Below are positions 17,053-63,987 of a stretch of 64,000 nucleotides of DNA, one piece after another (positions within the stretch are counted from its first letter, which is position 1; each line of letters begins with the position of its first letter). Under the pieces are notes generated by a model, which had not been told where the DNA came from, made no database searches, and saw only the letters and a program-made list of their open reading frames with translations. Made by a program: the position numbers and the translations under genes. Origin of the DNA: Lytechinus pictus (taxonomy: Eukaryota); the NCBI RefSeq assembly GCF_037042905.1, contig NC_087245.1:17114001-17178000 (forward strand), in the 5' to 3' direction.

Positions 17053-18151
17053 AGGACGGCAAATGCAGTTCGCGCCATCGGGCGTATGAATGCTCTTCGC
17101 TTGGTTTCTCAACGGAGAGCAAGCAAATCGAACGGTAGTCCATCAAGCGAGAAGACCCCAACATCACCATCTCCATCAGGTAGCAGTATCAGCTCTCCCG
17201 TGGAGCAGCCTACGGATGGGCAGGGCAGTGAGCGTACCCCTAACGCCGAATTGAAGAGAAAAGAAAAGGCAGAGATCGATAAAAGTATTGATCAGGAAAG
17301 TAGTGCAACCAATACCAGTACAGTGCCTTCTATTGAAGTAGAGACTCCGGTGAATACACAGAGTAATAGGGATAGTTATGTGAAACCTGATACGAATGGT
17401 AGAGCCTTGTCCTTTACTTTAGACTCGGACGTGGAAAACGACAGTGGTCTTGATCTGTCCTTGGATCAGAACGCTCTAGGAAAGCGCAGCGCGAGATCAT
17501 CCCAGAATTCAGTCAGCGAAGGAAGGGACGAACTGCCCAGTGACTTGAGTCTTAAAACCGACGGTGTTAATAATAATACACGTGATCAGAGTTTAAGCCT
17601 TGATAAGGATGGTCAGCAGCGTAATTCCGTGATCGACACTAATTCCGTGACATCATCCTCGGCTGATAAGAGTGATATCAGCCTGTTGTCTGATGCGAGT
17701 GAAGATACCAGCGATCCCGGAGTAAACATGGACCGATACCTCTACGATCCCAACAAGGGGGTGAAGAATCAGGCTGCGAGGTGGGAGGTGCGTACCAATA
17801 GTCCAGATAGGAAGTCCACCAAGAACAAGGCAGGTGGTGGTGGTGGTGGACAGTCACCCCCGCAGCAAGCACCGGTCTTCAGGCAGAAGTTCCGACACTG
17901 TGAGGTGATCGCAGGATCAGTGGCATGCTTCGAGTGCTGTGTGGATGGCAACCCTAGCCCTGATATCATCTGGTATAAGAACGGTAAGAGGGTCCAGGAG
18001 AACGAGAGGTACAGGATCATGAAGGGCGGTGAGGATATCCATTCTCTGGTGGTCAAGGATGTCACCAAGGATGACCAAGGCACCTACATGTGTGAAGCAA
18101 GGAGCCCGGCCGGAAAGGCCCGCTGTAGCGCCAGACTAGTGGTGCAGCAAC
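17053..18151 (+). CDS. Exon: CaM-binding half-motif RTANAVRAIGRM, Ser/Asp-rich linker, Ig domain 1 (APVFRQK...CSARLVVQ)
   Basis: Long polypyrimidine tract ending ttcttacAG at 17051-52, in frame with ORF 17086 (phase 0). Donor C|GTAAGT at 18152 (phase 1). I-set signature C..W..D.G.Y.C. Confidence 0.93.
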
Positions 18152-21100
18152 GTAAGTATTCATTTATCATTATGTTATGATATTTAGATAAGCCACGTGG
18201 TCATTGAAATTTCAATCCAAACATGGAGCTTCGTATGTTTTGGAGGTGTAACACATTATAATTATTGTCAGAAGAAAGGGATCACATTTTTACGCACTTC
18301 TTTTGAGAACAATTTCATGAAACACCCCTAATGATAATGTGTACTTTATTGTTTGATCAATAACAACACGAAATCCATACATGCACATGAAAATTCAAAC
18401 TTTAAACTATAAGTACTGGGATGACCTGCGTAGTGTATTTCGTAGGCCTCGGAGCATGAATTGTAAGACCAAGGATGTATCAGATGAAGTGACACCTCTT
18501 TGCCCTTTGGTGGGACTAGGAAGAAGGGGACAGGCAATGCTTGCTACTATTGGGTACATTCACCATTACCAGACATGGCACTTGTCTTGATCACATCTTA
18601 GAAAGGAAAGTAAACAAGTGCAACACTGCCTGATGTTTATGTGGTGTAGCGCGCGAGAAGTGATCTATCAATATTTGATCAGCGAACTGGGACAAAACCG
18701 AAGAGGAAAAGTCCTCAAGTCCTAAAGAGATCAAGCTTCCGTATCGGCCGCATTAAACACGTTCCTAAATATGTTTCCATGAGACAACAAACATACAAAC
18801 ACATAATCAGATAGGTAGGACTATGAGAATGTCATTGGACATTTTCTTTTGGGTAGTCTATTTTTACAATTCACAATACACCATGAATGCAATTAAGAAG
18901 CTTTAGAATGGCTTCCTGATGCATCCAGGGAATTTTTCATCAACACATGCTGGCTGACAGGTTGTCAGATCTGACAACTTTCCTTAATTTTGATTGGCTG
19001 AGAAGCACTGATACTATAGTAAATGTCGAATAAAACGTCTGACAAGTTTCATGATATGCTCTCAAGGAGTCCCGTGTTATTTGGACTTGGCAGACCTTGT
19101 CAGTATTTTTATTTTAGGTGCTCATATTCGATAGTCCATGGGATGTTTCATATAGATTTTCGCATAGTTACCAATTAATATATAAATTATTCTATTATGA
19201 ACCGCTAAAAGGGCGAGCACAATATATATTTTTTCTTGATGGCTACGACTGTATTATGAATATTTCGACTACATTACAAAAACAAATATTAAGATTGTAT
19301 TACAAAATTATTGTTTCGTTTAAATTGAGGGAAGTAATATTTACCTTGAAATGTGACTTATTGGATAAGATCGTAAGGAAAAACTGTATACTTCACTCTA
19401 CCCAATACAATAAGAAATTTTTTAGACACATTTAACTTGCCACGTTCAAGTCATCTTAGTATAATTTTCCGAACAGCTATAAATATGAAAGACTCCCAGA
19501 ATGCAATGATTTTTTATATTCTCGAGTATAATAAAGTTTTGAATGAAGTCATTGACCTCTACCGTCATTGGATGTTGAACCCGACTACCATCTACCAACA
19601 TGACGACTGAATGACATCCAAAGCTTTGCCAATTGTTCTTTGCCAGAAATACCAACTTTACCAGAGCCTGAAAGATTGTAATGTATACACCAATATGAGA
19701 AACTGGTGATGTTGGTCTCCTGAAAGATGTTTGGATTCGATTTCAGATCATTGTTGAAGCATGCCTACGTGATATGGTCACGTGACAGAGCTCAGCTACC
19801 ATTCACTGCATTCCTCAAGAGCTCTAAAATTCAAGCCTTTTAAATTTGGTGAAGAATAGGTATACATTTCACAGTGGCATGCTTATAAAATGACGCGAGT
19901 TCTTGCTCTTTTCTGTTTGAAAGATGATGAACTGCTAGGGAATTGCATTTCCCAGGTAGGCCTGTTACTGAAGACACTACTAAAGGCACAATGAGCAAAA
20001 CTTAAATTCGCTGCGAAAAGATGAAAAACAAGTATTATTTGAAAAAAAGGAAAAACGTTTATCAAATCCTTGAACTGCAATAGGCCAATCATTAGGACTA
20101 AACTTCTGTCACTTCTAAGATGGTTCTGATAGTCTTCCAGATGGCACACCAGATTACCAGAACTTTTCCAATTTACCCTAACTTGTGCCCAAACGAATGA
20201 ATTACCAGCATCCATTTTCATTCTTATTTGCCCAAGATGATTGAGTACATTAGCGCAACACAGATGCTCAAATTCAGATAAGATAAAGTTTGATTCAAAG
20301 CTAGAGGAGTAACCATGGCTATCCACCTCTTTCGGAACTTTCCCTTTTCAAGGTTGTGATGCCTCGGTAAATTCCATCCCGAATGCATCTTTCGACTCTT
20401 GCGTTTGACCTTCAGTGGCGTCTTGACCTTGTAAATGAAGGTCATTCTCCATCACTCGTTCTCTCTCCCTCTCTCCCTCTCTCACCCCACCCCTCCCCCC
20501 TCTCTCTCTCTTCCTCCCTCTCATCTTTATATTTCTATTCATCACTCTATCGTGAACTCGCAGATTAACTTTGATAAACCAGAAACTACTTTCCCAACCG
20601 TAAAATGTACTACCCCTAACCTAATAACACCATTGCATTCAGTCAGCTGAACCGAAACTGTAATCTGAATAAGATCGATAAATGTGGATCCTCCTTGCCA
20701 ATGGGGGTCGGAATGAAAGAAATGGCCACTCAGGCAGTCAGAAACCTTCATTACAAATGGTTAGTCCAATCAATTAGAGAAACAAGGTATTGTTGATATC
20801 TTTTCATCTCAATTTAAAGGGGTGTTTACTCTGAAAGAAGATGCAATTTTGCTAACAGAGTTCTGTGGCCAGTACAATGAGCCAGGTTGTGTTGTGTTTG
20901 TATGTTTTTCTCACTCACATTGCCTTCCATCAATACACTGCTTTTATATGACGAGCTGAAACTTCTTTTCTTTCTCACAAGATACAGCTGCTTGATGTGA
21001 CTGAAGGTCCAAGTGCTTTGGGAAATAAAGCTGAAATTACGTGGCCGTCACAACATGATGTGTAAATTTATAGGGTACCCCCCCCCCCCCGATGGAGGGG

Positions 21101-29000: not shown

Positions 29001-32000
29001 GAATGTTCGAACTTGAGGCCTTTAAAAATCATACAGGCATTTTATATACATAACTGAAAGAGGGAGCTAAATATCATAGAAAGCACAATTTCAATTTTCA
29101 CAAAGAATCATCGTCTTGAATACATTGATTTATCCCTCTTGATTTGTAATTATGAAGAACAATATATTTTCCTTGCCTTTAATCCGGCAAGCTGTACATT
29201 CCATTTCATTATGTCCCTGTAAAGGGATAGACGCTGGGACCAGACGTTTGATTCCTTCGGGATTTCGTGTTTGTCTGGAAAACGGAATATGTTTGCCATA
29301 AAGTCAGTAGCATTGCAAACACGGTACGTTTATCATTAAATAGAATCGCTTTTTATTTTGAATTTCAATTTTCATGCCAAGTGGTAACGATTTATAGTTT
29401 CTTCCACCCCCACCCTCATCGTATTTGACCTCAATTTTTATTTTTTTTTATTGAAAGTGGAAGGAGCTAGGAGTGAGCATCTAAACAAAGTGGTTAACGA
29501 ATTGAAGTTGCAGCTTCTTCTTGAATCTAGTGCTTGCATCTTTTATTCTATTTATTAAATGAAAAAATACCAAGACAAGATGTGATGAATGAAAATGAGC
29601 CATATTTAGCGTGAAGGCCCACCTTAATCATACGAAAGAAAATTGTACACTTCCTTCAATTGCGTGCTTGAAACCCAACAAATCTTGACGGGATATTTGA
29701 ATAGATTTTTCTTTCATGGTCCTAGCTAACATGGAAAATGAATTGGTATTTTGCGTCCAATTATCTCTATGTGTGCCCTCTATACGAAATAAAAAGGAAT
29801 TTATTCAAGTGGACATTTTGACTAACAATGGATGGATATGCGAAGATTCCCTGATCAAAGTCATTCCCACGTGAAAAAAATCATCACAGCCCCCCCCCCC
29901 CCTTCTTAAGAAAACCCTCTCTGTTCAGTGTCTCCTGAATAAATTATTTCATGTCTTCCATAATTTTTTTTTTTTGGGGGGGGGTTGGGGCTTACTATGT
30001 TGACTATAGTCAGGGATAAAGAAGAAAAATTCTCACGTAAAAGATCCTTCTTACGTTGTGAATGGCTGACCACATCAAGATCTATGCATTTTGAAGTACT
30101 ATCAAACTAAAAAACAATCTCAATTCGTATTTTCAATATCGCACCGAATTACTGAAGTTCTCAATGAAATCTGAATTGTAAATGAAGACATTCAACCAGA
30201 AAATATTCATTTCATATTTTCCCACGTAACCTCTCTTTATCGTTGCCCCATTCTTCATGAAGTTTGTCCATTGAATAATGGAAAATATATTTCATTATGG
30301 TTTTGTCTCATCCGAGCGAGAACAAATGAACTCTCCTTTTTTCACAGTCAGAGTCCAATGAAATATATTGTACGGTAATAAACCCTCACAATATATATTC
30401 ATGGGGATCAGAGTGTGAGAGAGAATTTGGGACCGAATATAAAAATGGGAGTAGATTAGAAATATATGCATGTATAATACTATGCTCTCTGCAAGCATAC
30501 CCCAGGAGGGAAGGGGGCACCCTGACATAATTTATTATTTTTTTCCATTGCTTGTCACAAATTTTTTGACAGGTAAATGTTTCTGATAATGGTAGTGACT
30601 TTGATTTGCTGTTGTTAATTATTGTTACTTGCGAGCCATGCCCCCCCCCCCTTCTCCGGAGAGTTTTTCTATTACGTCACTGAGGGTATGCTTGCTCCCA
30701 CTGTTATATCATGGACATGGTTATATGCTCTAAACAATGCTCCCATCACCCTCCATGCACAATGGTGCTGACATTTTCAAGTGATGAAAAAATATGACAT
30801 TCATCAAGCTCATGGCAATGTTTCCTGCAAGTGAAGCATTATAGAGGCGTTTTTATGTCCTACGTACTTGGAGCTGTCGGGGGAGTGTGATAAATTGATA
30901 TTCTATCCCTTACCCTGACCGTATTCTTTACAAATGAATACATATTTCATAACATATCTATTACATTTTCGTAAGCCTCAAGGTCAATTGCACGCACTGA
31001 CCTTGAACGCAATGGGGGATGCAACGACACCCCGCTATCATAACTAATCACTATTTTATGATATGAATGATCTTCCAAACATACATCGCAAGTGGTAATA
31101 TCATTATGATTTATCGTGTATTCTAACATGAGTGACGAGAGCAAGGGAGCCTGTAGTTCACGTCTAGGAGGTACTCAATCACCCATTAACGGTCGACATT
31201 TTAAAAAGCCTGGTATTCGGTTTATAATTGTGTAATGACTTCGTAAGCCCCCACCTGCAGCGAACGGGCTTTCCTTTCCATACCCTATTACCCTTTCAAG
31301 TCGTAATTTAATATTTGTCAAAGTTTTCATATATTTTTGTTTCATATTTTAGGTAAACTTGCTATAAATTAATTTTGTCAATTTATTGCGCTTGAAGAAA
31401 ATCATTCATGTTCAGACTCTTTTTCATTAGATGTTAAAAAAATATTTCTCTTACTCAAATACGTATTTCTGATTTTAACATGTTTAAGAGAATTTCACTA
31501 GAAAGCCTTGAACGAGACAACCCTACAAACTTCATATTATCATAAATTGTTTTCCTGAATGTGCACCTTTTCTTACAATCGCATTGCCGAAAGCGCGCAT
31601 GCAGAAGAACATAGGAGTATACCTAGCATATTCACTCGAAGTAGACGTATATATCAAAAAGGGGATCTATATATTCAGCATTTTCTTTTTATTTCCTTTT
31701 ATCTTTCACAGATCCAGTGTCTAATACTAGTAACCACGAAGATAAAAGGTAAGTTAGTTTTAATTATACCTCTTTTCCTTTAATGTCTTTGGTTAAATGT
31801 ACTTCTCTACAAACATGGACTTACTAGTAGTAGGTCCATGCTATAACTTAACCATGAAACGATTCATCCTATTTTCTCTATCTTGTTAAATCCAGTCCTG
31901 CCATTTTCTTCAGTTCTTTGTTCTCACCTGACTTACCGGTGCTATGTTCTCTTTGTACTAATATTGTTCGTTTTTATTTCATTATGATGTGTTCTTTATA

Positions 32001-51000: not shown

Positions 51001-54000
51001 CCTTGCTTGCCCGAGATTCTAGATTATCACATCCCCGGATCACATCAGAAACTCTTTGATAATGATCCTATCTTTGTTTTTCCCCTCAAAAATAGAAATC
51101 AGTGAAAACAAGTGACGAGTCTGGTTGTTTTCCCGCCATTTTCACCCCCACAATGGTCAACGTCCCATTTTGCCAGAGATAACAAATATCACTTTTTATC
51201 CGTAATTATCATCTTATTTAAATACTTCCGAGTTTTTGTATTGTCGAGCTAATATGGAGGCTGAATATCGATTTCACAAGGTGTGACTCATTATTTCTTT
51301 GACCACTATAAACTGATAATTCTCAGGATTCCCCGCAAAATAATCTGCGATTGCACATCAGCATTACCAGAACACTACATCGTGATTTATTCATCAAATA
51401 ATGAGAAAATCACGTCTTTAAAGCAGACAGGAAAATCCCAGACTGACCGATGAATAGACAATAGTTTGACCATGAAAACACCCCCTCTTTCTGAGATTAC
51501 ATCCAGTTTTGTATTGTTTTGGGTGGATGAGTCAGTTGACCAAGAATGTCTACAAGAGATTGTTAGTAGGGTCATAAAACACTTGACGTACTATCAACAT
51601 TCCGCCATTAGCCATAGAGATCTCATTAAGAATAGTTAACGAGCGTTGCGGACATCGCTCTGATCGATGAAATGATGATAATCGCTACATAATCCGACAT
51701 CGTTGCTCCCAATATTGTCGTTAACGGTGTCACGTATAACTCAATTGTACTCGACAGGTGATAAACTAAAAGAAGGATAAACATTCTCCTATAGAAAATT
51801 AATAATGTTTATGAAAAAAAAAACACGGAAAAGGTCTTATTAAATTATTACACGAATAAATGTAATGCTATTTATAGTGCATGATAACAATTAAATGTTT
51901 TATAATGGAGATGGTCTGTGAATTAAACAAAATGAGAAACGTTTTTAAAGAAATCCCGAGTAGGTCACAAACGTACTAGACTCGCATGCTGAACAATCAT
52001 TCATAAATACAACACCAAATCCATTTTGATTTTAACCTGCTTATAGTGCTTTTCTGATATATTATTCCTTTATTAGTCATCGGTTGGGTTAATCATAGCC
52101 GTAACCTTATGAATTTGAATAGAAGTCCACCGAAATCAAGACCTGAGTCGGAATACCCTTTCAGCACAAAATATCCTTCAACTTTACCTGACGGTTTACT
52201 GTGCTTGGGGTATGGTATTTATATCATAATAGATGTCAAGTCAATGAGCTGTGCATTGATCGTACGCAAAGGGTACTAAGGCAAATGCACTTTTATCACG
52301 AGCATGAAAATATTATGAATATACCAAAAAAAATAGGTCACCATTATGCGATGGATCTAGTAATATCAGAATATTGCGGCACACAAGCTGGTATGTTTTG
52401 AGTTGAGAATGAAGTATACTGAGAGAATGGTGGACGGTGTATGACTTTGATTGAACTGTCAAGCCATGTCTCGTTAAACTGGACGGATATCCCATGACAG
52501 AATGATAATACGTGGAAAAACAACATCGCGAATGAACGAGAATTATGTCAATTATTTTCTATAATTACTTGGTTCGCAATAATGCAATCCATTCCGTAAT
52601 TTCCGTTAATGTGCCAAGTTTTGTACAGAAGAGCTCCCTTGAGATTTAACAGATATTTTATAAATAGTGCTTTAGTTAATAATTGTGAAACTATGGATAA
52701 ACAGACCACGTCGTGTATGAACAATATTTCTATGGACATATGACCTTTTTCATATCTTTTTACAAACGATCAACACGATCAAGAAAAGGAGTAACATGAG
52801 ACAAATTCAATTTTGTTTCCTTCTGATACTTGATATGAATGTGGTTTCCTCCTTCAATGCGATAAAACGTCTGGAATTAACTCGAATCTTCTCTTCACTT
52901 TCTCATTTCCTCCCGAAAATCTGTTCGTCCTTTCTGTCTCCGCCTCTCCCTTTCGTTCTTCCACTCTCCACAGCCAAGCCGAAGAGACCTCCCTTCTTCC
53001 TTCAGAAGTTGTCCGACTGCGAGGTCCACGAGGCCGGTGCTAACGGCCGGCTTCAGTGCAAGCTGGACGGTGCCCCTGCCCCCGAGACCAGCTGGCTCAA
53101 GGAAGGCAAAGCCCTTCAGGAGAGTGACCGCGTGCACTTTATCCAGAGTGACAACGGTATCCATGCACTCATCATTGATGACGTCACTGAAGATGATGAT
53201 GCCATCTATACCTGCATTGCTAAGAACAAGCACGGTCAGGTGTCCAGCTCTGCTGAGCTTATTGTAGGTGAGTTTCCAAAAGTAGGAAGTCATCAACAAG
53301 GAAACAAGATTGTTGCCAACCTTGCTTTTAAGTTTATAGGTAGGCCTGCCAATGTAAAGGAAAACAATTATTCAGTCCTTTAAAGTGAGTTTTGCTAATA
53401 CAAAGCACCTCCTTGTGAATAATTAAAATCAATGAGTTAAAAAAGTGTAATTAATAATAACTGATTCATATATGAATCAGTTATTATATGAATCAGTTAT
53501 TTATATTAATCGATCGATCGATACTTTAAGAACTTATAAGTTCTTAAAGTATCGATCGATCGATTAATATAAAAGTTAGGGTAGATTTTATTCAATCAAC
53601 ATTTTTCATTGGACATGTTTACACGGCACCCCGATTCCACATCATTCAGACTCATACACTAAGGAGCTTTGAAAGCTCCTTGCTTACACCCTAGATGACA
53701 CGAAGTGTAGTTAAAAGATAATAAATGAGCGTAATGATTATTTTGTAACATGTGTTTTATTCATTTTCTTCTTCAAATCTCCCAGAAATCGACCTTCCGT
53801 CAAAGAGTGAAGTAGACAGTTTGATAGACGGATCTCTTCATATAGACGTGGATGATATACAACCAAGGTAGGTAGTTTTACAACTAGTAGTTATAAGAAC
53901 TGTAATATCCTAAATCATATTTACTGGTTGCCCGACTCTTCATTGCAACGGTGAGAATAGTGGTTTAATGGAATTGAAGATTTCTTGCAGATTGAAACCC

Positions 54001-57000
54001 CCTGTTCGTTTTTTAGATGTTTTCAAGGAAGATGTTCTGCCTTTACCATGTATCCAAATTAATATCATGGATTATGATACCGTTTCACGGAATCCGTATT
54101 CCGATCGTTCAAGATTTATTTTGATTTCATTTTATGAGAGAACAATAATGTTCATCCTACGATCTGTCTGCATTCGTGCAATGACTAGGGCAAATTCACC
54201 ATGAAATAACGATCATGTTCTTGCATTGACCATTCTCCAATTCAAATCGTTGTTTGGATTTTATTGCAAACTCTTATGTTACAGTGCCTGCCATCAGACG
54301 ATATATTTCATTGATCCTATAAACAATATTAACTTGATCTTCCCCTTCTGCAGCTCTGTGACCGAGACGCCACCCATCGCTGTATCCTCACCCGCTGCAA
54401 CTAAGCCTACAGTATCCGCCCCTCAATTCTTGGACAGACCCAGCTCGGTGACAGCAGACCAAGGCAAATCCGCACGATTCAGCAGCTCAGTTTCGGGATT
54501 TCCCCTTCCCGTAGTCACGTGGGCCAAGGATGAGAAAATCCTGGAGGATGAAGGAAGATTTGAGATTTATGATGAGGGTAGAGAGTTTATCATGGAGATC
54601 TTTGATCTTCAGCCAACGGATGAGGGGTTGTATACGGTCACTGCCGAGAACTCTGCAGGCAAAGCGGCGACTGGGGCACAGCTGACCGTCAACAGTAAAT
54701 ACGTTTCCTTTCTTCGGTTTCAGTTGCCAAATCATGTGGATACCGTCTACTTTTTAAAGCTAAAGATATGTTTAGGTATCATTGAAAGTATATTGAAGTT
54801 TGGACATAGATGAATATCATATTTCGAGAATATCCAAGAATGTAAATGGAAATAATATATAATGTATACGAGAGACAGGTATTGCAACAACTTGTTAGCA
54901 TTGGACTGGCAATTCAAATGAAAAAAAGAAGTTTGTTGGTTGTTTAATGTTACTAAAAATAATGCAATCGATTACTACGTTTTTACTTTGTTTTTTTTTT
55001 AGGGACAAAAGCAGCTATTGAGCAGCCTCCTCCTCCAGCTCCTTACACGAACTCATTGTCTTATTCGGATGTCCGTCATGACGAGGCAGCATCTTCAGAA
55101 GACGTCCCGTCACTCAAGTCAGAACAACTCATCCCAGAACCCATCGCCACCAATCCTACAGCCTTCCAGCCACCGTCTAGGATCCCGCCAGAGTTCCTGG
55201 CACTACCAACCCAGAGGACAATCACTGAACCCAACTCTGCCAAGTTCAACTGCCGCGTGGTGGGTGATCCCAAGCCCACAGTTACGTGGAGTCGTAACAA
55301 TGTTGTCCTGAGTGATTCGGGGCGGTATGAGATCTATGAGGAAAAGGATGACTTCATTCTGGAGATCTTTGATACGACCACTGAGGATTCTGGTGTGTAT
55401 GTCTGCACTGCAACCAATCTGGCTGGGCAGAAGCTTGCCGAAGCCAGACTCACTGTAGAGAGTAAGTTCTTCATAGTCTCCCAAACGTAATTAACAAGTC
55501 AAAGGAAACATGTAGACATAAAAAGAACGTTGGAGAATGAGGAACATCGTAATGTTATAACTAGTTACAATAAGCTCACTGTGAGATCACTGATTACGTA
55601 TTGTCCAGTGTTGTCGTCAGTCTCTTTTGATCATGCCCGATTAAAAAAGTTGTAATGATTCATATATCCTTGATTACAGCTGACAAAATGAAGAACATAA
55701 AAAGGAAATTAGTTAAAGTTGAATTAAGAAGGGGGTGAGTTTCCATAAATATAGGTTCTACATACAATATATAGTATATATAAGTTGTTCAAACACATAG
55801 CATGTCACAATAATCCTCTGCCTTCTCGATATTTTGCTTTGAAAGTCTATGAAATTAGCCACCTGTCAGAGCCCGAGAGACGAGTGTACAGAAAAGTCAC
55901 TCGGAGTGTGACGTCACCGGGGGGAATTTAGTATAAGAGGTGCCTGAATGTCATACAGAAATGCTATGCAGAGAGAGAAAGATATTTTACAATTTTTTTT
56001 CAAAGCAACTCAAATCAAATAAATAGGACTGATATGTACAAATCTTTACTTTCCCTGTATAAAAAACAGTATGAATAACCACCATGAACTCTTCAATCAT
56101 GATGTAAGATAGCAAACAGTGAGTTATTGAATGATATTTTCACTATTTCTCATTTATTTTATCACGATGTTCAATCAAGTGAGTAGCTGGAAAGTAATTC
56201 CGGCGGCTAGCTCAGCGCGCGCTGAACGCATAATACTAGTACACACAACACCCAGGCTAGGCATTGAGTGTACTGTTATGGTCTGGTATGTCGACTTAGT
56301 TCATGGCCGTGCAGCGATCCCCTGGCGTTTTTTCTTCTTTTCTTTTGTCTTTGACTCCACTTTTATATCCTCTGGATCATTTCCACTCATAGCTCATTCC
56401 ACAGAACAATCTTGAACCAAACGTATAGTATTCTTTCTCGGCCTTCTGAGTTGTTTTCTATATTTAATTACGCTAGGGGTCACCGTCACACATACAAACG
56501 CAATTCGGAAGTGAGTTGAAGACAGAAAGATATATAGTAATTAGTATACATCTCTATGGTTGAAGACAACAAGAACGGTACGGTAGCTCGACAGCTAGCT
56601 GCGCCGGAGCGGGCGGCCGGTCGGCACAAAGCAATTCCGCAACCAACTGTGTTTTTTTGCAAGAGCCGCGTCACACGCGGATAAATATGTCATAATAACA
56701 CGTCTGCTACGTTATCGACTGGTGAGAAGATCTCGATCAAATTTTATATTATTCACCTTGAAATTATTCCTTTAGGGTCTATGGTATCACTCTGAGGGAA
56801 TTCACATATTTGGAATAATAGTACGGCCACAAATATTTTAATCATTTCCTCTTTGCAAGTTCTATGGCTCGCAGATACAACTTCAACTGCAGTTATTCCA
56901 TATGAAGGAGTACGTGCATAGTACACAAAACGGCACTGCCTTGATTACTACACCGGGACCGAATACCCCCCGGTGACGTCACACTCAAAGAACACCCGTC

Positions 57001-60000
57001 TCGGTAGGCATTGCAGGAGCGAACTCAGGGAAAATGGGTAGGGATAAATCGTTCAAATTCACTATTTTGAAAAAAGAAAATGGGGGGTCGAATCACCTAT
57101 TAGTGTTTGGGGGGTTGTAAGGTTGCTATTAATGTAAATATCTCAATATTTGGAATCGTCTTCTTAATTCAACTTTAAGAATTGATAATACACATTTTTT
57201 CATAGCGACTGGTTTACAAATAGATTATCTAATCAATGATGCTGTCAATAATGCAATTTGATTAATTTCTTTCACATAAGGTTCTGCCCCAAAGGGTACA
57301 ATACCTGAATTCATCGAGAAGATCAGCGGTACTGCCGTGGGAGACGGAGAATCCGCAAAGTTCACCTGCAAGCTTCGAGGTATACCGCCCCCTAGCGTTC
57401 ACTGGTATTATCGCAACCAGGAGATCGTCGGTAGCGATGAGGTGTATGAGCTCCACCACCAAGAAGAGACTGCATCTCTGTGTTTACCGGAAGTGTTACC
57501 GGAGGATGAAGGGGAATACTCGTGTTCGATTAAGAATGATATGGGAGAGACATCATGTAGTGCCTTCCTGAAAGTTCAAGGTATGTTCAATTTATTACAC
57601 CCCCCCCCCCAAAAAAAAGGAACTGAAGTAGTAGACAAACAGATGCTGAGTTTGCATTCGCTGGGAGACGGCAAAGGTCCAATCTTTCCTATTTCCTGCA
57701 TTTGTTTACTGGATTTTCAAAGATTTTCAAGAAGGGGTCATCTTTCTTTGTCTCTGTCTTAGAACGTACCGTCTTGGATGTTAAGTTGCTTTTATCTTGC
57801 ATCTATAAATTTTAACATTTAATCAATCGTCGTTAATCAAAGCAATCGCAACGTTTTATTTAATTATAGAAACAAAAATAAAAATGATTCAAGGAACGTG
57901 ATTCGTCCTATTGTCTAGTTGTTTTGGAGTTTTCATTTCCGTCTCTTACTTTCTCTTCTTTAGCTGCATCCCCAAAATCAACGATGCCAGAATTCGTCCA
58001 GAAGCTTAAAGACATCCAAGCCATTGACGGAAGCCCACTGTCACTGCCTGTCAGAGTCGCAGGTATTGTTACCCTTTTTGAACAACTTAATTTTCAGATG
58101 ATCTTTGTAGGTTTGCATGGTGGAGTTTATAATGTGGAGAAGGTTCACGGTTCACCATGTGTAATATGAAGAAGGGAAGGAAATACGGGCAGAAAGATTG
58201 AAATGGAAAGACGAGATAGGATGAAAAGAGAAAATTTGAAGTATTCTTTTCTTGAAAGTGAGTGAAGTCCTGAAAAGGACTGTAAACCAGATGAGATGAG
58301 CTGAATATGGCTTGAGTAGTAGCAGGTTGAAGTGAAGTGTAACTTAAATTTCATTCATGGTTTTTTCATGCACCGGGATAATTTGTTTTTCAATAAATGA
58401 TAAAATGTAGGGTATTTCAAAAGATGATGAAGCATCGTTCGATTGAATGTGTTAAAGAATTAATTTGAATCCTATTTCTACATGTGAGATTTAATTGGTT
58501 TTTTGAGAGCTACGATAACATTTGAATTTCTTCATTTGCAATAGTCCGTACAATATGATATGATTAACAACAAGTTGAAGTGTTTAGATCTAATTTCTTC
58601 AAATAGATTGAGTTGGTTCTTGTTCGGGCAGACACGGTTATCTAAAATGTACATGTAATCAGAATTTCAAAATATTCAGAAATATTATCATTTTCTAATT
58701 AAGGTTCACCTGACCCAGACGTCCAATGGTTCTTCAACAAGGAGCAAATAAAAGAAGATAGTGATTTCAAGTTTGTTCGAGATGGAGATAGGTTATCTCT
58801 GGTCATTGCTGAGGTTTATCCAGATGATGCTGGTGTCTATACGTGTAAGATCTTCAATTCGGCGGGTTCGGACGAGTGCTCTTGCAAGGTATTCGTTCAA
58901 GGTACGTTGACGTTTATGTGTACCTCATATTAAGAGTTTAGAGCGCCACCTTGCGTTTATACCGATAGTTGAAGACTAGTGAAATGACACAAATAATGAT
59001 AAGGAATAAGGAATGAAACATTAGTTAATTCTCATGAAAATATCATTAAGACTACACGACTAAATCTATAAATGAAGTAGTTATTATTTCTTAATTCGGC
59101 GAGAAATCATGTTCAACCACAAACTGGTCAGGAAGCCAGATTGAAAATAAATCAACAATATTATTTTGGGGAAAAGGTGGATTGTTTTTTTACATTCATT
59201 TCGTCATTGATATTAAGAAGGTTTTTTTATGGCAAGCAAAATATATATACATTCCCACGGAATCTAGAATCGAACGAAGCTTCTGAACTTGCAGCTCTTT
59301 ACAGCAAAACGTCAGAATTATCTGATCAGAAGGCAAAATCAAACAAAATAATATTATTATTGTCAGGGATATTTCTTTCTTATTACTTGGCAAACCCGAT
59401 TCTTAAAAAGAATTAAATCATGCGACATTTCATTAAGATTGCCTAATGTTCTGTTTATTCGACAGAGAGTGACATCGACGGTAGCCCGCCAAAGTTCGTT
59501 CAAAAGCCCCGTTCCATCAACATCGACGAAGGAAGCAGTGTTACACTTTCTTGCAAGATCGACGGCGAACCTCTTCCAACCGTTACCTGGATCAAAGATG
59601 GCCGATCTATCGAACCAGGCCGAAGATTTAAGATGGAGTCTTCAGGTATCTCCGGCACGACTCGTTCGCTGAACATCCCGACGGTTCTAGCTACCGATGC
59701 GGGTAGTTATACTTGCGTCCTGCATAATCAGTATGGAGGAGAGCAGTGCAGTGTGAACGTGGTGGTTAAACCACTGGAAGATGAACAGACCGATTTCAGA
59801 TCTCTTCTCAAATCAAGGTATCTATTTTTAATAACGCAAAAAGTGATACCATTCGAGTCGACTTAATAATTGTGGATTTACAGAATAATTCAAGGATCAG
59901 AATGCGATTGATTTTTTCTCTTAAAATCTGGTTTCATTCATGGCAAAAAACGAAATTTGTATCAACATCCATCAAATATAATACGTGATTTTGATTACTG

Positions 60001-63000
60001 AAGTGTTGACTGATATCACACTATCGAATATGGTTATTGTTTCATGTTATTGCTATTCCTTTGCCCAAAGTATATTTCATCGAATTGTTGTATAATTTCA
60101 AATAGATCGTCGAGAGATCAAACCAAAAATCTGACCAAATTTGAAATTACAAAGGCAGATCGTTTTGATGTAATGTGATATATTTTTAAGGAAGGAATGG
60201 CTATTAAAATCACTTTATTTCAGAATTATATGTATTTGGCTTTTTACCTTTTCTATCATACTCTGCAGACCTCGACTCCAGAACATCTCCAACTCACCCA
60301 ACAATGTGTCGAGCGACAAGAGCGAAGCGGAGCAGGTGGATTTCCGTCATGTATTGACACGCCATGTAAACACCAGAAAGCGTCCCGTCTTCATCAAACC
60401 GTTACAAGATATCGAGGTCGTTGAAGGCGAGTCTGTGACTTTCGAATGCCATGTCGATGCTATCCCCGAGCCGACCATCATCTGGACTGCGAATAAAAAG
60501 GAGATCAAAGAATCTAAGTACTTCCAGATGATCTATAAAGGTAAGACATGATGATTCCGTGACATCAATACACTTTCCGATTTTTTTAATCACAAGGTAG
60601 GCTCAGAATATGGACCTGTCAAAATTGTCACATGGATTACATGCAAATTTGTTTTACTCAACAGTTATATGGTTCATATTTTAACCAACATCGACTTTGT
60701 TCTGAGACTCTTCCCTTGTGTTCTGAGGATAATCCTTTTCATGATTTTAAAAACTTGTCTCGTTATGAGGTACGGTAATATTAAATGATAACAAATAGCT
60801 GTTTGTAGTTGCTAAAATATTACTATATTATGTTGGAAAGTAAAAACTTCCCTCGTATGATAGTGGTTTGTTGTCAAAAAGGTTAGTGATTCTGCCATGT
60901 AGAAGACATAAATGATCAAACTAAGTTTTACGATCATCCACCTCTAATATTTATTTTCACTGATTATGATTGTACCTGAACAATGTTGGATAACGTTGAT
61001 GATGGTTATATTAAAAGATGATAAGTTAACCCAAATTAGGCCGAGCTATTTTAGTAAATGGTAGAGCCCAAGTGGGTCTCGGTCGTCGATTGCGAAATCG
61101 CGCGCTCATATTGCTTCTGACGTAATCTACGAAACATAAGAGCAATTGTTTTAATTCGGGATTTCATTGATTATGCTAAATTTTGCATGTAATCAGAATT
61201 CTGCCCTAAATTTCAATTTTGATAATTATTTTGCTTCCTTGGGTTCACGGGTATGATGAACATACATGTAATTATGGACGTATTTCACTATATAGGCCTA
61301 CTTTGAAAGTTTAGATTATTGGTTGATTTCGAAGTTTTTGTTAAGGGACATCGATATTTGAGAATGGTATTTGAGGTTTTCTGAAAAATTAGTGCGATAG
61401 TTGAAACTGTTTATTTTGAGTTTAATAGTGGATATTGTAGGTGAGCTTGATGAGTAGGAAAAAATATTTTCACTACTTTTCTTACTGAGGCAGACCAATG
61501 TGCTTTATCGTTATGGATGGTTTTTAATTTCGTTTAAAACGCTGTAGATCTCGATGATATCTTGTTCTTTTTAATCTATTCAGTAAGTCTCTGTAGGCAA
61601 AAAGCAACCATTGCGTCTCTCTCTCTTCCTTTCTCTTCCTTTAGCATGTTTAGGGAGGTTCACATTATACAAGCTATGCTTTTGAGTGAATCTCACATTT
61701 CCACCTTTTTTCTATTTAAATTATATATTATAATCTGTCTACAAAATGCGCCATATTTTGTATATATTTTTATATGTTAATTATCATTGATGTTGAATAT
61801 AATTATAATGACAATGATTTGTATCGTTTATATTTGTTATAAATATATACAAATGATTTGTATCAATATTTATGTCATTTCTGTTGGAAATAAATTTGAA
61901 TCTGAATGATTTGATAGCAAGCCTAACTTAGGCCAAATTGATGAGATTGTTGACTGTTAATGGGTGTCGAGTCTAAAATATGTAATCATGGCAATTCATG
62001 GTTACGGATGACGATTGGACTGATTAAACACGGAGTGAAACAATGGACATGGTTTAAACATTTTAGTCCACAATACACCATCCGTTGCGACCTAATCGTC
62101 TAATAAAATGCAATAGCATTTGATATGAACATTCTAACCTACAAAATTTTAAGGATAGAAGTTCCGAATAGTGGTATCCATTTTTTCTACAAAATAACTT
62201 GTAAAACAAGTATTAAAGGATAAGATAATTCTCAGACTTGTTCAAGTAACATTCATTATCATATTGATATGATTACAATACTGTCTGTGTGACCCAGAAT
62301 ATTATTTAAATGTTTGTAATAAATTAGATTATTTTTTTAATACGGCGCCATTTTCCGCCTGCGAGAGCCCGAACTGTACCGATTCTCACAAAGTGGGTCT
62401 CTACATGATTCTACTTCCATCAGTACTCGAATTGAACTAATATGGTGATTGATTTGCAGTTGTACTTTAGCAGGTTAATCTAAGCCTGATATAGAAGAAT
62501 TAATTTAAAGGGCGTGCGATATCACAATATAGGACTGGCAGGTTGGGAACCCCGCAGGGGTGTGATTTCTCCCCCCTCGGGGAGGTAGAGGGGTGTAGCC
62601 ATGTGTGAAGCTTACACGATGTCTTTATTGGATCGCGATCAGGGGATGATTAGTCGCGCTTCAAGGCTACGCGTCATTACTTGCCGGCCTGTAAACTAAT
62701 CATCAAATCGGATCTGATTTAAAGTTCTCCTCTATCTCAATACTATGTGCATGTGAATTTGTAACTAAATGTCAATATGTCACCATACATACATGAATTA
62801 AATCTACGTTTAAAAATAGTATGTCTCCGGAGTGTCCCCATGATTCTACTTCCTTATTTTAATGTCACCATTCATCATGTCCATGACATTTTACTTTCAT
62901 TGGTAAATTTCTGCAATGTTCAACTCTTGTTTTACCAACCACATGATTTGTAGTGACCTGATTTATTTATAAATTGCTACAATGAAAGTAATTTTGTACC

Positions 63001-63987
63001 CCGCTTTCAGGTCTAAGTTGATATATGATCCACTATTACGGGTTCCCTTTTACCAAGGGGATTCAAACGAAACTGACATTTATTAAGTAATAGTGAAATG
63101 TAGATATCCATTATGGTTTGAACCTAGCAATATGAAATAGATAATCGAAACTCATGCAGATCGCATGTTTTTTTATGTTAACTGATTGTTTACTATAAAA
63201 CACAGGCTATTGGAGTCAAATCTATTTCTCCCAGGCGTCAGCTTGTTAGGACAATCTTTATGCGATTGTCTTTAATTTGTACTTTTTGTACAATGATACA
63301 GTATGCATCGACTGTCGATTGAAATATACGTTTCAAGAGTATCGAAAATAAATGACAAAACTCCTTTGAAAAGACTATGCACTATGTGAAGTCTTCTGAG
63401 TTAATGGGATTCTAAATTTCCATAGTTCTTTCTGCAGGCGGCTTGTAGAGAGAGGGATATTATTCTTCTTGACATCTCATTTCTGTATGTGAATGCAAGA
63501 GGATAAGTCTGTCTGAACCATTAATTTTATACCTTCATTTTAACTGCAAGGGAGATTGGAGATGTATATTTTCGTGTGAACTAAATTGGTACATCATTTG
63601 GAATTGCTATTGATCTATATTTCAATACGAGATCGTATATTTGATTTATGCTTTCCATTGTTAAAACTTGTAAAAGATTAATACTCCCGAATTAAAATTT
63701 TAGAAAGCGTCATTTTGTATTTGTTCAGTCATGTTACGGCAGTCGTGCGGAACAGCAATCACATCTATTCAATGGGGAAATAAAATGCGGTAAAGATATC
63801 TTTTATCATGATGATTTTAGACAAGGTGATTTTCAACTGTATCTTTTTGATGTTTTTTTTTTTTTTTTAGATGCGGTAGCAACGCTCCTCATAGCCGAAG
63901 CTTTCGCTGAGGATGAAGGTGATTATACATGTACTGCAACCAATGGAGTCGGAACAGTGTCTTGTACCGCAGAGCTGACTGTCCAAG
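17053..63987 (+). CDS. MYLK: Multi-exon MYLK/MLCK-like giant Ig-domain protein (partial; 13 exons, ~1748 aa, 9 I-set Ig domains, 2 DFRxxL motifs, MLCK CaM-binding half-motif at the start); continues beyond the window
   Basis: Exons 17053-18151, 31712-31748, 42922-44516, 52974-53267, 53786-53867, 54354-54694, 55003-55461, 57281-57580, 57964-58062, 58704-58901, 59466-59817, 60269-60540 and 63871-63987 all have AG/GT boundaries and join in one frame. Motifs NAVRAIGR, EQTDFRSLL and AEQVDFRHVL are characteristic of smooth-muscle-type MLCK. The symbol is a family-level call; the kinase domain is not seen. Confidence 0.8.
24398..25008. mobile_element. Non-autonomous DNA transposon (MITE), TTAA-flanked with AGG-type termini (Kolobok-like), copy 1
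   Basis: TTAAAGGTCGAGTCCAC...GTGGACTTGTTCTTTAA. Long imperfect inverted arms; co-linear with 32781-33383. Confidence 0.85.
25737..25879. mobile_element. Short MITE with TIR AGGGGCCGCGGAA, copy 1
   Basis: TAGGGGCCGCGGAA...TTCCGCGGCCCCTG; related copy at 38943-39085. Confidence 0.75.
26060..26094. repeat. (TA)n microsatellite
   Basis: Direct reading. Confidence 0.95.
26205..26300. repeat. (AAT)n/(AAC)n microsatellite
   Basis: Direct reading. Confidence 0.9.
27951..28100. mobile_element. Short fold-back MITE-like repeat
   Basis: Inverted arms AACTTTGCCATCCAATGTTAAC / GTTTACCATTAGGTGGCAAAGTT around an ATTGGCTGA core; a similar core occurs at ~18960-19060. Confidence 0.5.
31712..31748 (+). CDS. 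37-nt micro-exon (H)PVSNTSNHEDK(S)
   Basis: Strong acceptor ttttcttttt...ctttcacAG and consensus donor AG|GTAAGT. Phase 1 to phase 2, exactly what is needed to join 18151 (phase 1) to 42922 (phase 2). No stop codon. Not in the ORF track. Confidence 0.8.
32781..33383. mobile_element. Non-autonomous DNA transposon (MITE), TTAA-flanked (Kolobok-like), copy 2
   Basis: TTAAAGGTCAAATCCACC...GGTGGACTTGTCCTTTAA. Same internal organisation as copy 1. Confidence 0.87.
34093..34529. mobile_element. MITE-like element with 34-bp terminal inverted repeats
   Basis: CTATGTTCTGAGAACATTTGTTCTCTCATTCGAG (34093-34126) matches the reverse complement of 34496-34529 at 33/34. No clear TSD. Confidence 0.75.
35958..35998. 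repeat. (CT)n(CA)n compound microsatellite
   Basis: Direct reading. Confidence 0.9.
38943..39085. mobile_element. Short MITE, diverged copy of 25737-25879
   Basis: TAGGGGCCTTGGAAC...GGTTCCGCGCC with a similar internal sequence. Confidence 0.6.
42922..44516 (+). CDS. Large exon: ~435-aa Ser/Arg/Thr-rich low-complexity region plus Ig domain 2 (KPPSFIKKP...ALVELVVN)
   Basis: Part of ORF 42836-44524. Acceptor cttcacAG at 42920-21 (phase 2), donor G|GTAAGT at 44517 (phase 1). Confidence 0.92.
52974..53267 (+). CDS. Exon: Ig domain 3 (PPFFLQKLSD...DDDAIYTC...SAELIV)
   Basis: Acceptor ctctccacAG, donor G|GTGAGT, phase 1-1, I-set pattern. Confidence 0.93.
   Translation, partial: PSRRDLPSSFRSCPTARSTRPVLTAGFSASWTVPLPPRPAGSRKAKPFRRVTACTLSRVTTVSMHSSLMTSLKMMMPSIPALLRTSTVRCPALLSLL
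53454..53573. repeat. Adjacent perfect palindromes (34 bp at 53454-53487; 74 bp at 53500-53573)
   Basis: Base-by-base pairing checked; centres between 53470/53471 and 53536/53537. Confidence 0.95.
53786..53867 (+). CDS. 82-nt acidic linker exon (E)IDLPSKSEVDSLIDGSLHIDVDDIQP(S)
   Basis: Acceptor tctcccAG, donor AG|GTAGGT. Phase 1 to 2, bridging 53267 and 54354. Open frame; not in the ORF track. Confidence 0.85.
54354..54694 (+). CDS. Exon: Pro/Thr linker plus Ig domain 4 (APQFLDRP...GAQLTVN)
   Basis: Acceptor cccttctgcAG (phase 2), donor A|GTAAAT (phase 1). Confidence 0.9.
55003..55461 (+). CDS. Exon: Pro-rich linker plus Ig domain 5 (IPPEFLALP...EARLTVE)
   Basis: Poly-T acceptor AG at 55001-02, donor A|GTAAGT, phase 1-1. 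Confidence 0.92.
55871..57010. mobile_element. ~1.1-kb inverted-repeat-bounded element (probable DNA-transposon derivative)
   Basis: 21/21 inverted match GAGTGTGACGTCACCGGGGGG (55904-55924 vs 56966-56986), plus outer GAGACGAGTGT / ACACCCGTCTC. Exact ends uncertain. Confidence 0.7.
57281..57580 (+). CDS. Exon: Ig domain 6 (TIPEFIEK...EVLPEDEGEYSC...AFLKVQ)
   Basis: Acceptor ttcacataAG, donor G|GTATGT, phase 1-1. Confidence 0.9.
57964..58062 (+). CDS. Exon: N-terminal half of Ig domain 7 (TMPEFVQKLKDIQAIDGSPLSLPVRVA)
   Basis: Acceptor tctcttctttAG, donor G|GTATTG, phase 1-1. Confidence 0.88.
58704..58901 (+). CDS. Exon: C-terminal half of Ig domain 7 (GSPDPDVQWFFN...EVYPDDAGVYTC...KVFVQ)
   Basis: Translated by hand (absent from the ORF track). 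Acceptor ctaattaAG, donor G|GTACGT. Completes the I-set domain. Confidence 0.92.
59466..59817 (+). CDS. Exon: Ig domain 8 (SPPKFVQKP...CSVNVVV) plus first DFRxxL motif (DFRSLL, 59792-59809)
   Basis: Acceptor ttattcgacAG (phase 1), donor AG|GTATCT (phase 2). Confidence 0.9.
60269..60540 (+). CDS. Exon: second DFRxxL motif (DFRHVL, 60339-60356) plus N-terminal part of Ig domain 9
   Basis: Acceptor ctctgcAG (phase 2), donor G|GTAAGA (phase 1). Confidence 0.92.
63871..63987 (+). CDS. Exon: C-terminal part of Ig domain 9 (DAVATLLIAEAFAEDEGDYTCTATNGVGTVSCTAELTVQ)
   Basis: Poly-T acceptor, donor G|GTAATG. Translated by hand; the gene continues past the window end. Confidence 0.92.

Follow-up and report, generated by a model that had tools for sequence, protein, structure and literature searches.

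A predicted smooth-muscle-type myosin light chain kinase with two tandem kinase units in the sea urchin Lytechinus pictus

The 64-kb stretch of Lytechinus pictus DNA analysed here (the window; G000:C1:17114001-17178000) very probably represents the central part of one gene of ∼102 kb, encoding a smooth-muscle-type myosin light chain kinase (MLCK) of ∼3039 aa with two complete tandem kinase units. Unit 1 would comprise kinase 1, whose catalytic exons lie upstream of the window, an autoinhibitory/calmodulin (CaM)-binding segment (ARRRWQ|RTANAVRAIGRM), a linker and a telokin-like Ig domain. A 37-nt micro-exon and a Ser-rich linker of ∼440 aa would then connect it by splicing to unit 2, a canonical long MLCK with seven Ig domains, two DFRxxL motifs, three Ig domains, Fn3, kinase 2, a CaM site and a terminal Ig, its tail being located downstream of the window. 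A preliminary description had read these MLCK modules as standing in reversed order; instead, unit 1 appears to end with the exon of the CaM site and the Ig, and unit 2 to begin with the Ig array and the DFRxxL motifs. The apparent domain permutation is thus resolved as a tandem duplication retained within one transcription unit.

Exon chain within the window

Thirteen exons of the + strand, all with AG/GT borders, form a frame of 1748 aa with zero stops, in agreement with the earlier proposal of an in-frame splice through a 37-nt micro-exon to the Ig array, two DFRxxL motifs and a ninth Ig. In the first (exon A, 17053..18151), the second half of the CaM-binding site of kinase 1 is followed by a Ser/Asp-rich linker of ∼260 aa and an I-set Ig of telokin-like type (Pfam, E 1.4e-22); contigs of X1, X15 and X5 cover this exon. 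It is preceded by ...cttacag and opens with AGG ACG GCA AAT GCA GTT CGC GCC ATC GGG CGT ATG, that is RTANAVRAIGRM, so that codon reading and splice borders confirm the opening previously given for it. Splice-site reading gives an entry phase of 0, an exit phase of 1 and a GTAAGT directly after 18151. The 9/12 match to KTGNAVRAIGRL also holds against mouse MYLK. Positions 1..17052 (+) constitute the last 17 kb of a 22.5-kb intron located between ARRRWQ and RTANAVRAIGRM, which divides the kinase-1 CaM-binding site; as had been assumed, tblastn with the kinase of a relative detected no kinase exon in 1-17050.

The micro-exon (HPVSNTSNHEDK, 31712..31748, borders cacAG / GTAAGT) has homologous residues in the Diadema, S. 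purpuratus and L. variegatus models. It is followed by the exon of the ∼440-aa Ser-rich linker and Ig 2 (42922..44516), which is defined by a Pfam I-set match, the acceptor at 42922, tblastn and the frame model. Pfam I-set matches and the frame model also define the exons of Ig 3 (52974..53267), Ig 4 (54354..54694), a linker with Ig 5 (55003..55461), Ig 6 (57281..57580), Ig 8 with the first DFRxxL, DFRSLL (59466..59817), and the second DFRxxL, DFRHVL, with the first half of Ig 9 (60269..60540). The second half of Ig 9 (63871..63987) is placed by the same evidence together with the flanking genome, and the gene runs on past the window. Ig 7 is split between 57964..58062, a first third placed by tblastn with P0029 and the frame model and giving no Pfam match by itself, and 58704..58901, the remainder, which matches I-set profile positions 26-90 and fits the frame model. 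Between Ig 3 and Ig 4, the frame requires an 82-nt linker exon (53786..53867), found by tblastn with P0029 and flanked by AG/GT borders; the borders at 18151, 31712, 42922 and 52974 listed in the preliminary description stand, whereas this exon was absent from its list.

Of the 11 ORFs scanned, 10 gave an I-set match (E 4e-25 to 7e-10), and these matches add up to nine Ig domains; the ORF at 57888-58166, which holds just the first third of the split Ig, was the only one with no Pfam match. The two DFRxxL motifs, EQTDFRSLLK and EQVDFRHVLT, are located at residues 1611 and 1643 of the 1748-aa model, corresponding to residues 1910 and 1942 of the full 3039-aa model. The 1748-aa model shares 97.8% identity with a Lytechinus variegatus RefSeq isoform (its residues 16-1762), and an open frame of 13 exons with such an identity lies far beyond chance expectation.

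Full gene model and flanking kinase units

In the flanks of the same genome, Pkinase matches were found 13.7 kb upstream and 8.1 kb downstream of the window, on the same strand. Kinase 1 is located 5.5-25 kb upstream, and its last exon (window coordinate -5597..-5468) ends with ARRRWQ followed by a phase-0 GT donor, which corresponds to the upstream exon ending in RR(K/R)W(Q/K) that the preliminary description had suggested looking for. The downstream Fn3 and kinase exons it had likewise envisaged are also present, as an Ig-Ig-Fn3-kinase 2-CaM site-Ig series 1-13 kb beyond the window with the Fn3 exon at window coordinate 70059-70388. Its reading of the locus as a giant MLCK with a kinase on either side of the window is borne out by these flanks, by the RNA contigs and by orthologous models alike. 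The full model, built by tblastn and splice refinement on the flanks, contains 29 exons, all with AG/GT borders, and 9120 nt encoding 3039 aa without internal stop. Its identity is 86.0% to the S. purpuratus RefSeq model P0028 end to end, 97.8% to L. variegatus P0029 (residues 300-3039 of the model) and 67% to the D. setosum protein.

The catalytic motifs GxGxFGxV, AAK, HLDLKPEN, DFG and PEFxAPE are intact in both kinases, and both are followed by ARRRWQ...AVRAIGRM. The predicted CaM sites read KKFLARRRWQRTANAVRAIGRM for kinase 1 and NFVARRRWQ(+/- 19-aa cassette)KTATAVRAIGRM for kinase 2, the mouse site being KKYMARRKWQKTGNAVRAIGRL. The two kinase units have intron positions in common (after LGK, (I/V)LE, CY(V/I)L, KDQR/RKE and ARRRWQ), the mark of a genomic tandem duplication. 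Kinase 1 begins ∼10 residues past the initiator Met and is without an Ig-Ig-Fn3 head, which is present in front of kinase 2. An I-set Ig follows each CaM site: the one behind kinase 2 has the mouse telokin Ig as its best match (51%, 104 bits), and for the one behind kinase 1 the telokin Ig is marginally the best match (78.2 bits vs 76.3 for another mouse Ig). By homology, both heads would be autoinhibited and activated by Ca2+/CaM, the DFRxxL motifs may anchor the protein to F-actin and the Ig behind each kinase may act in a telokin-like manner through myosin binding.

Transcript evidence

The RNA data consist of Logan contigs, which are short-read assemblies rather than single molecules and which support each junction but fall short of placing kinase 1 and kinase 2 on one RNA molecule. 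X1 and X15 are not recorded as RNA and were treated as such because their contigs skip introns. Both contain the 18151->31712 joint with GT..AG ends, in a 5014-nt contig at depth 301 (X1) and an 8669-nt contig at depth 71 (X15). This is the only junction observed directly, the others resting on contig extent and homology. The X15 contig includes 1217 nt before 17050, consistent with 897 nt of kinase-1 coding sequence and a ∼320-nt 5'UTR, and 6350 nt after 18151, exactly the combined length of the 20 modelled exons that follow, up to and including the kinase-2 exon ending in ARRRWQ. Intron depth is ∼0 except in repeats. For X5 and X22, from the other Lytechinus species, no row was obtained for the 18151->31712 joint, probably because the micro-exon is 6 nt shorter there (HPVSNNHEDK in P0029).

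Orthologues and phylogeny

Two Pkinase stretches were found in seven of the 14 relatives scanned, and also in D. setosum P0023. The string K-cam-Ig...DFR-DFR-Ig-Ig-Ig-Fn3-K-cam-Ig was present in 7 of 15 proteins mapped, from three echinoids, two asteroids (one without the last cam3 and Ig), one ophiuroid and one hemichordate; the comparison of domain order that had been proposed gave the same order in models of all four groups. Isoforms of 3022-3053 aa with both kinases are present in RefSeq for L. variegatus and S. purpuratus, and the two-kinase orthologues there are XP_011667918.1 and XP_787033.3 of S. purpuratus, XP_041477160.1 of L. variegatus and XP_072180958.1 of D. setosum; further models come from Asterias, Acanthaster, Amphiura and Ptychodera. 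All are automatic predictions, named 'myosin light chain kinase, smooth muscle(-like)' or 'obscurin-like'. Among these models, the two-kinase layout is conserved across Ambulacraria.

The layout is already in public annotation, the S. purpuratus RefSeq models having been there for years. The preliminary description had allowed for orthologues of this order being already described; this applies to the S. purpuratus RefSeq entries, but no paper describing a two-kinase MLCK layout was found in the literature searched. In the tree, echinoderm K1 and K2 share one clade with vertebrate (mouse, fish) MYLK (support 97/88), and the K1 and K2 kinases of obscurin and SPEG-like proteins are grouped in starred clades of their own, away from the echinoderm MLCK kinases.

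A probable single gene and its predicted alternative products

Alternatively, the locus could be made up of two or three distinct genes in tandem: a short one for kinase 1 that ends in a telokin-like Ig of its own, a canonical long MLCK gene and, perhaps, a small Ig gene. The joined RNA would then reflect occasional read-through, or an assembly chimera arising via shared exons. L. pictus RefSeq divides the locus in this way, into a 324-aa K1 (P0291), a 454-aa 'palladin-like' protein (P0269) and a 2376-aa MLCK (P0267); the D. antillarum models have the same three-way split, and in the crinoid Antedon separate 520-aa and 2000-aa models lie on one contig. Predicted internal first exons at 10112, 11396 and 42700 and low-depth read-through beyond 18151 point in the same direction. 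However, in X15 the depth of the spliced contig exceeds that of the read-through contigs spanning 18138-20041 by a factor of 10-35 (71 vs 2-7), the joint runs through a conserved, frame-keeping micro-exon, and the X15 contig shows no branch between the kinase-1 5'UTR and the kinase-2 end, its 6350 nt beyond exon A matching the model exactly. Moreover, the split K1 models end in intron read-through (P0151, ARRRWQ+VGLIHLIS; P0291, +VGLIHLIL), a truncation artefact, and the locus is annotated as a single gene in L. variegatus, S. purpuratus and D. setosum. We therefore regard separate genes as improbable.

Still less likely is that the main products are devoid of kinase 1, being long MLCK forms or a small telokin-like protein expressed from internal promoters in the CaM-site-splitting intron, with the protein starting at an orphan CaM half-site. 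RefSeq does contain isoforms of this kind: in L. variegatus (2731-2757 aa) they begin with MKK+RTANAV... or MRLFRSQKVYLKLET+RTANAV..., in Patiria isoform X3 AVRAIG is at residue 22, and kinase-1-less forms of S. purpuratus and L. pictus measure 2740-2754 aa and 378-454 aa, respectively. Candidate first exons lie within the window at 3921-3965, 10112-10120 and 11396-∼11575 with 12159-12218 (all +), from matches to RefSeq model N-termini only. They are predictions, and the 3921 exon is without a GT donor in this genome. The X1 and X15 contigs extend 1217-1224 nt upstream of exon A, the size of the kinase-1 coding sequence plus 5'UTR. Forms without kinase 1 would in any case be extra isoforms of one gene and no different explanation; the orphan CaM start of the preliminary description accordingly survives for alternative predicted isoforms and nowhere else. 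A circularly permuted single-kinase MLCK, with the actin-binding/Ig extension shifted C-terminal to the kinase, drew on the domain order within the window and nothing more, and is refuted by the full 29-exon model, in which another complete unit of Fn3, kinase, CaM site and Ig continues the same frame 1-13 kb beyond the window end.

Within a single two-kinase gene, alternative first exons in the CaM-site-splitting intron and an unused 18151 donor would, by homology, yield kinase-1-less long forms and short telokin-like forms. When the donor is not used, RefSeq C-termini and X15 contigs indicate a read-through tail, RKYSFIIML* (18152..18180, +), and a short product ending just past the Ig; the L. 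pictus models P0269 and P0275 end with ...LVVQQRKYSFIIML at the C-terminus. These models (454 aa and 378 aa, respectively), together with the low-depth 18151 read-through, suggest a candidate telokin-like product of an internal promoter. A further predicted first exon (MFRGNNRRLIYHIF, 42700..42743, +) is that of P0267, based on the ORF listing and the annotated N-terminus only; it opens the annotated 'second gene', and its next exon is the one at 42922. Finally, a 57-nt cassette exon would add 19 acidic residues amid the predicted kinase-2 CaM-binding helix.

Comparison with known kinases

The layout of vertebrate MLCK and the actin-binding role of its DFRXXL motifs have been described (PMC2185581). 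Unit 2 has the same order as vertebrate MYLK (210-kDa long form, short form and telokin; mouse P0002), namely Ig array, DFRxxL, Ig-Ig-Fn3, kinase, ARRKWQKTGNAVRAIGRL-type CaM site and terminal Ig, and the MYLK kinases are 55-60% identical to the urchin kinases and belong to one clade with them. Both loci give several products, and the predicted internal first exons of the urchin gene resemble in place the telokin promoter of MYLK, which is located in the intron splitting the CaM site. However, the urchin protein has an extra whole kinase-CaM-Ig unit fused in frame at its N-terminus, two DFRxxL motifs instead of the four in mouse, three Ig domains rather than two between DFRxxL and Fn3, and a long Ser-rich linker.

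For the MLCK, telokin, obscurin and SPEG field, the locus offers a natural case of two same-type kinase heads on one scaffold, with predicted isoforms dropping either head. This two-CaM-unit MLCK, conserved in sea urchins, starfish, brittle stars and an acorn worm and unmentioned in the papers searched, is no new kind of molecule, models from sister species having been public; its value is comparative and curatorial, and includes a corrected 29-exon, 3039-aa gene model for the species. We tentatively propose, as a possibility that we hold at less than even, that ambulacrarian MLCK is a two-headed Ca2+/calmodulin-dependent kinase with both heads active on a ∼335-kDa chain, the N-terminal head free on a long disordered tether and the other anchored to actin/myosin. 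Its output might be tuned by internal promoters in the CaM-site-splitting intron and by the 57-nt cassette, which would alter or abolish CaM control of kinase 2, and the arrangement might go back to the ambulacrarian ancestor as an MLCK-lineage parallel to obscurin/SPEG.

Obscurin, SPEG and UNC-89 are likewise cytoskeletal proteins rich in Ig/Fn3 domains that carry two kinase domains of the MLCK family, with a long, partly disordered stretch between them (PMC7957886, PMC10129394, PMC11487192), and the urchin polypeptide model shares the two kinase domains. However, the urchin heads are bona fide MYLK-type with predicted CaM sites and are located at both ends, whereas the kinases of these proteins lie near the C-terminus. 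No RRKWQ or AVRAIG motif was found behind either kinase in the two obscurins scanned, and in the precomputed Pfam lists RhoGEF (PF00621) appears under arthropod obscurins and is missing for P0028 and P0023. Twitchin, titin and projectin differ by a single kinase of another clade without the RRKWQ...AVRAIG motif, and resemble the urchin protein in having a kinase followed by Ig domains and unique linkers.

The window lies within a tandem-kinase MLCK gene

The window holds the middle of a ~102-kb tandem-kinase MLCK gene, with kinase 1 (K1) upstream and kinase 2 (K2) downstream. For this model, 40 kb per flank were taken from the window's own genome, where the window occupies positions 17114001-17178000 of its contig, and the proteins of relatives were mapped onto these flanks. 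Pkinase matches were found on the same strand 13.7 kb upstream and 8.1 kb downstream of the window, and tblastn with the Diadema antillarum protein P0001 (E<=10) detected no kinase exon in window positions 1-17050. The upstream flank contributes six K1 exons. The last of them, at window coordinate -5597..-5468, ends with ...KKFLARRRWQ directly before a GTAGGT donor in phase 0 and is thus the upstream exon, with an ...RR(K/R)W(Q/K) end and a phase-0 donor, that the preliminary description had predicted. The Fn3 and kinase exons expected downstream were also found, since the downstream flank carries, in order, exons for a linker plus Ig, for an Ig and for Fn3, then five K2 exons, which end ...ARRRWQ, followed by the 57-nt cassette and the final exon, which reads KTATAVRAIGRM...Ig...VEGF-stop. 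Among the three readings proposed earlier (a giant MLCK with one kinase upstream and a second downstream, a permuted MLCK, or a protein starting with an orphan CaM motif), the first is therefore right, and the 'reversed order' of modules arises from the position of the window borders within the gene.

The full model consists of 29 exons, all with AG/GT borders, whose 9120 nt encode 3039 aa without an internal stop. Across its full length it shares 86.0% identity with the S. purpuratus model (P0028), and across residues 300-3039 it shares 97.8% with L. variegatus isoform X3 (P0029). The exons in the flanks match the L. pictus RefSeq models at 100% identity, so the window derives from this species or one very closely related to it. 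Both kinases retain an intact glycine loop, the lysine of AAK and the motifs HLDLKPEN, DFG and PEFxAPE; they share 59% identity with each other and 55-60% each with mouse MYLK. Both units have introns at the same positions, after LGK, (I/V)LE, CY(V/I)L, KDQR/RKE and ARRRWQ. The second unit is thus the product of a genomic DNA duplication and not of retroposition. The cassette exon (window coordinate 74856-74912, 10.9 kb past the window end, AG/GT borders) encodes SDSSESNQESTNDDSSDET and interrupts the K2 CaM-binding site at its centre, with ARRRWQ on one side and KTATAVRAIGRM on the other; the S. purpuratus X2 and L. variegatus X3 models include it, and D. setosum lacks it.

Exon chain inside the window

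The DNA is of animal origin, with a G+C content of 33-44% per 2-kb bin. Exon A (17053-18151, 1099 nt) is preceded by ...cttacAG, opens with the codons AGG ACG GCA AAT GCA GTT CGC GCC ATC GGG CGT ATG, which read RTANAVRAIGRM, and is followed by a GTAAGT donor at 18152. It encodes the second half of the K1 CaM-binding site, a linker and a telokin-like Ig, the last identified by Pfam as an I-set domain (E 1.4e-22). The 9/12 match of this exon to KTGNAVRAIGRL holds against mouse MYLK. Of the 11 plus-strand ORFs scanned with Pfam, 10 contain an I-set domain; the one without a match is a 33-codon piece that corresponds to the initial third of an Ig split between exons.

Once its boundaries are set exactly, the chain comprises 13 exons with AG/GT at every border and 1748 aa without a stop, so that exon A does run in one frame through the micro-exon (31712-31748, plus strand, 37 nt, with AG and GTAAGT borders) to the Ig array and two DFRxxL motifs, as had been proposed. 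These motifs are DFRSLL at residue 1611 and DFRHVL at residue 1643 of the 1748-aa window chain. The acceptor at 42922 was present where it had been placed, and an 82-nt linker exon (53786-53867, plus strand) has to be added to the junctions listed previously. Three junctions of the chain were placed using the RNA joint and by eye. Outside the exons of the gene, 15 ORFs on both strands matched no Pfam family, and thus no nested gene was seen.

The introns also contain repeats. A foldback element occurs in two copies of ~81-85% similarity, at 24438-24991 and 32797-33358, 8.4 kb apart in intron, each with inverted arms of ~90-120 nt separated by ~340 nt. In the RNA runs, word depth over these copies climbs to tens of thousands and numerous spurious 'joints' connect them, indicating a multicopy, transcribed family. 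A long impure trinucleotide repeat of the GTT/GCT type at 7173-7717, also intronic, has open poly-V/A, poly-S and poly-L frames on both strands.

Transcript evidence

Assembled contigs of two sequencing runs of the window's species (X1 and X15) and two of a sister Lytechinus species (X5 and X22) were aligned to window positions 16500-35800. RNA is on record for 3 of the 24 runs listed, all raw-read, and these four runs are not among them. In X1 and X15, depth was limited to exons and repeats in this region. The joint 18151->31712, with GT..AG ends, was present in one contig each of X1 (depth 301) and X15 (depth 71), and it is the only junction that was seen directly. X5 and X22 gave no row for this joint, probably because the micro-exon of the sister species appears to be 6 nt shorter.

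The X15 contig measures 8669 nt, with 1217 nt before 17050, 1102 nt on exon A and 6350 nt after 18151. Added up from the micro-exon to the K2 exon that ends in ARRRWQ, inclusive, the exons of the model amount to exactly 6350 nt, and the 1217 nt upstream are compatible with 897 nt of K1 coding sequence plus a ~320-nt 5'UTR. By these lengths, one unbranched assembled transcript extends from before K1 to the K2 end, the X15 and X1 contigs being short-read assemblies and not single molecules. The end of the X15 contig coincides with the exon before the 57-nt cassette, as expected for a splice branch. Other X15 contigs, at depth 2-7, cross the 18151 donor unspliced to about 20041. A repeat at 18432-19075, in the intron just 3' of exon A, is covered at very high depth by each of the four runs, with a word depth of 2300-3500 per bin and about 52,000 at 18986, and complicates the reading of this low-depth read-through.

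Isoforms and public annotation

For L. variegatus and S. purpuratus, RefSeq contains two-kinase isoforms of 3022-3053 aa and isoforms without K1 of 2731-2757 aa; an accession of this set, XP_787033.3, carries an early number. The public annotation of L. pictus, on the window's contig, cuts the one gene into three models: a 324-aa K1 model (P0151/P0291) that runs into the intron past ARRRWQ, a 454-aa 'palladin-like' model (P0269) made of alternative 5' exons, exon A and RKYSFIIML-stop, and a 2376-aa MLCK (P0267) whose start is an intronic ATG before 42922. The K1 model closes with residues translated from the intron (VGLIHLIS/L), and in one version the glycine loop contains an insert that also derives from intron sequence.

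Matches to the N-termini of the RefSeq isoforms without K1 predict alternative first exons on the plus strand at 3921-3965, at 10112-10120 and at 11396-~11575 with 12159-12218, all inside the 22.5-kb intron that splits the K1 CaM site. The 3921 exon has 15/15 residues as in L. variegatus X3, but AC and not GT comes next in the window genome. A further predicted first exon (42700-42743, plus strand) matches the N-terminus of the RefSeq model starting the 'second gene'.

A full-text literature search, whose coverage did not extend to the sea urchin kinome paper (the supplements might list the gene), found no description of a two-kinase MLCK, and passages of PMC7957886 and PMC4883820 likewise describe none. 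As the layout is present in RefSeq models, it is public as automatic annotation, yet apparently undescribed in the literature as far as searched.

Proposed working of the protein

The nearest known kind for each kinase unit is vertebrate MYLK. Established by the analysis are the gene structure, the splice and the conservation of motifs and layout. By analogy with the vertebrate enzyme, each kinase head would be inhibited by its C-terminal pseudosubstrate/CaM-binding segment and freed by Ca2+/CaM, the DFRxxL pair would bind F-actin, and the Ig after each kinase may behave like telokin. In vertebrate long MLCK, according to PMC2185581, DFRxxL has a role in F-actin binding and the layout is 6 Ig + DXRXXL + 3 Ig. 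K1 is predicted to lack an Ig-Ig-Fn3 head, starting ~10 residues from the N-terminus, and would sit on ~700 residues of mostly disordered linker. Forms without K1 and short Ig-only forms are possible further products of the locus.

Domain order in relatives

A word-indexed search with exon A retrieved Diadema antillarum P0001 (57% identity, full coverage), which has the order kinase, ARRRWQKTANAVRAIGRM, linker, Ig, the micro-exon-like HPSLSRDDIKSP and a Ser-rich linker that is that of window exon 42922. Searched alone against 1.84 billion representatives, the Ser-rich linker gave 3 matches at E<=0.001, of which the Diadema protein alone is a relative; one other (P0020) is a DUF7507 repeat protein. 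The 90% cluster of P0001 includes a D. setosum model (P0023) of 3037 aa with two Pkinase, twelve I-set and one Fn3 domain. As a query, this model retrieved the 3049-aa S. purpuratus protein XP_011667918.1 at 67% identity and 100% coverage, together with long models of starfish, brittle star, acorn worm, brachiopod and scallop. Two kinase domains were found in 7, three in 1 and one in 6 of the 14 relatives scanned.

We mapped the domain order of 15 proteins with purpose-built kinase, Ig and Fn3 profiles and by motif searches. The order K-CaM-Ig-(6-7 Ig)-DFR-DFR-Ig-Ig-Ig-Fn3-K-CaM-Ig is common to this model, S. purpuratus, D. setosum, Asterias, Acanthaster (a model truncated at its end), Amphiura and Ptychodera, so that the comparison of echinoderm and hemichordate orthologues suggested earlier shows it in echinoids, starfish, brittle star and acorn worm. 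In the crinoid Antedon, K-CaM-Ig and the long MLCK are separate models, and Ciona and mouse have one kinase each.

Phylogeny of the kinase domains

As a scaffold with two MLCK-family kinases, the protein comes closest to obscurin/SPEG/UNC-89. In a tree of 49 rows, K1 and K2 are not orthologous to those kinases, and the MYLK CaM motif follows both kinases here, unlike in the two obscurins scanned. Echinoderm K1 and K2, Ptychodera K1/K2 and the tunicate, arthropod and vertebrate MYLK kinases form one clade (97/88). All vertebrate proteins among the best 120 matches to K1 are annotated as smooth-muscle MYLK or have its domain content, MYLK2/3/4 not being part of this comparison.

Echinoderm K2 and the crinoid long form make up a clade (93/93). 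The echinoderm K1 lineages have no resolved grouping in the free tree, and the AU test does not reject their monophyly (p 0.256), which does not show a clade. Since Ptychodera K1 and K2 are sisters (100/98), either conversion or an independent duplication may have occurred there. A pan-bilaterian arrangement is rejected for now: K1 of Lingula and Argopecten falls outside echinoderm K1 and groups with obscurin/SPEG-like, cnidarian and placozoan kinases (92/92), so the two-kinase models of these species are a different thing. Tandem kinases in this family are widespread and have more than one origin. The 'MLCK' models of the placozoan Trichoplax (P0148) and the octocoral Dendronephthya (P0150) carry two kinases each, and these join the obscurin/SPEG-like clade; an 'obscurin-like' protein of the acorn worm Ptychodera flava (P0054, 2340 aa) has three kinase domains, the first of which groups with short arthropod kinases.
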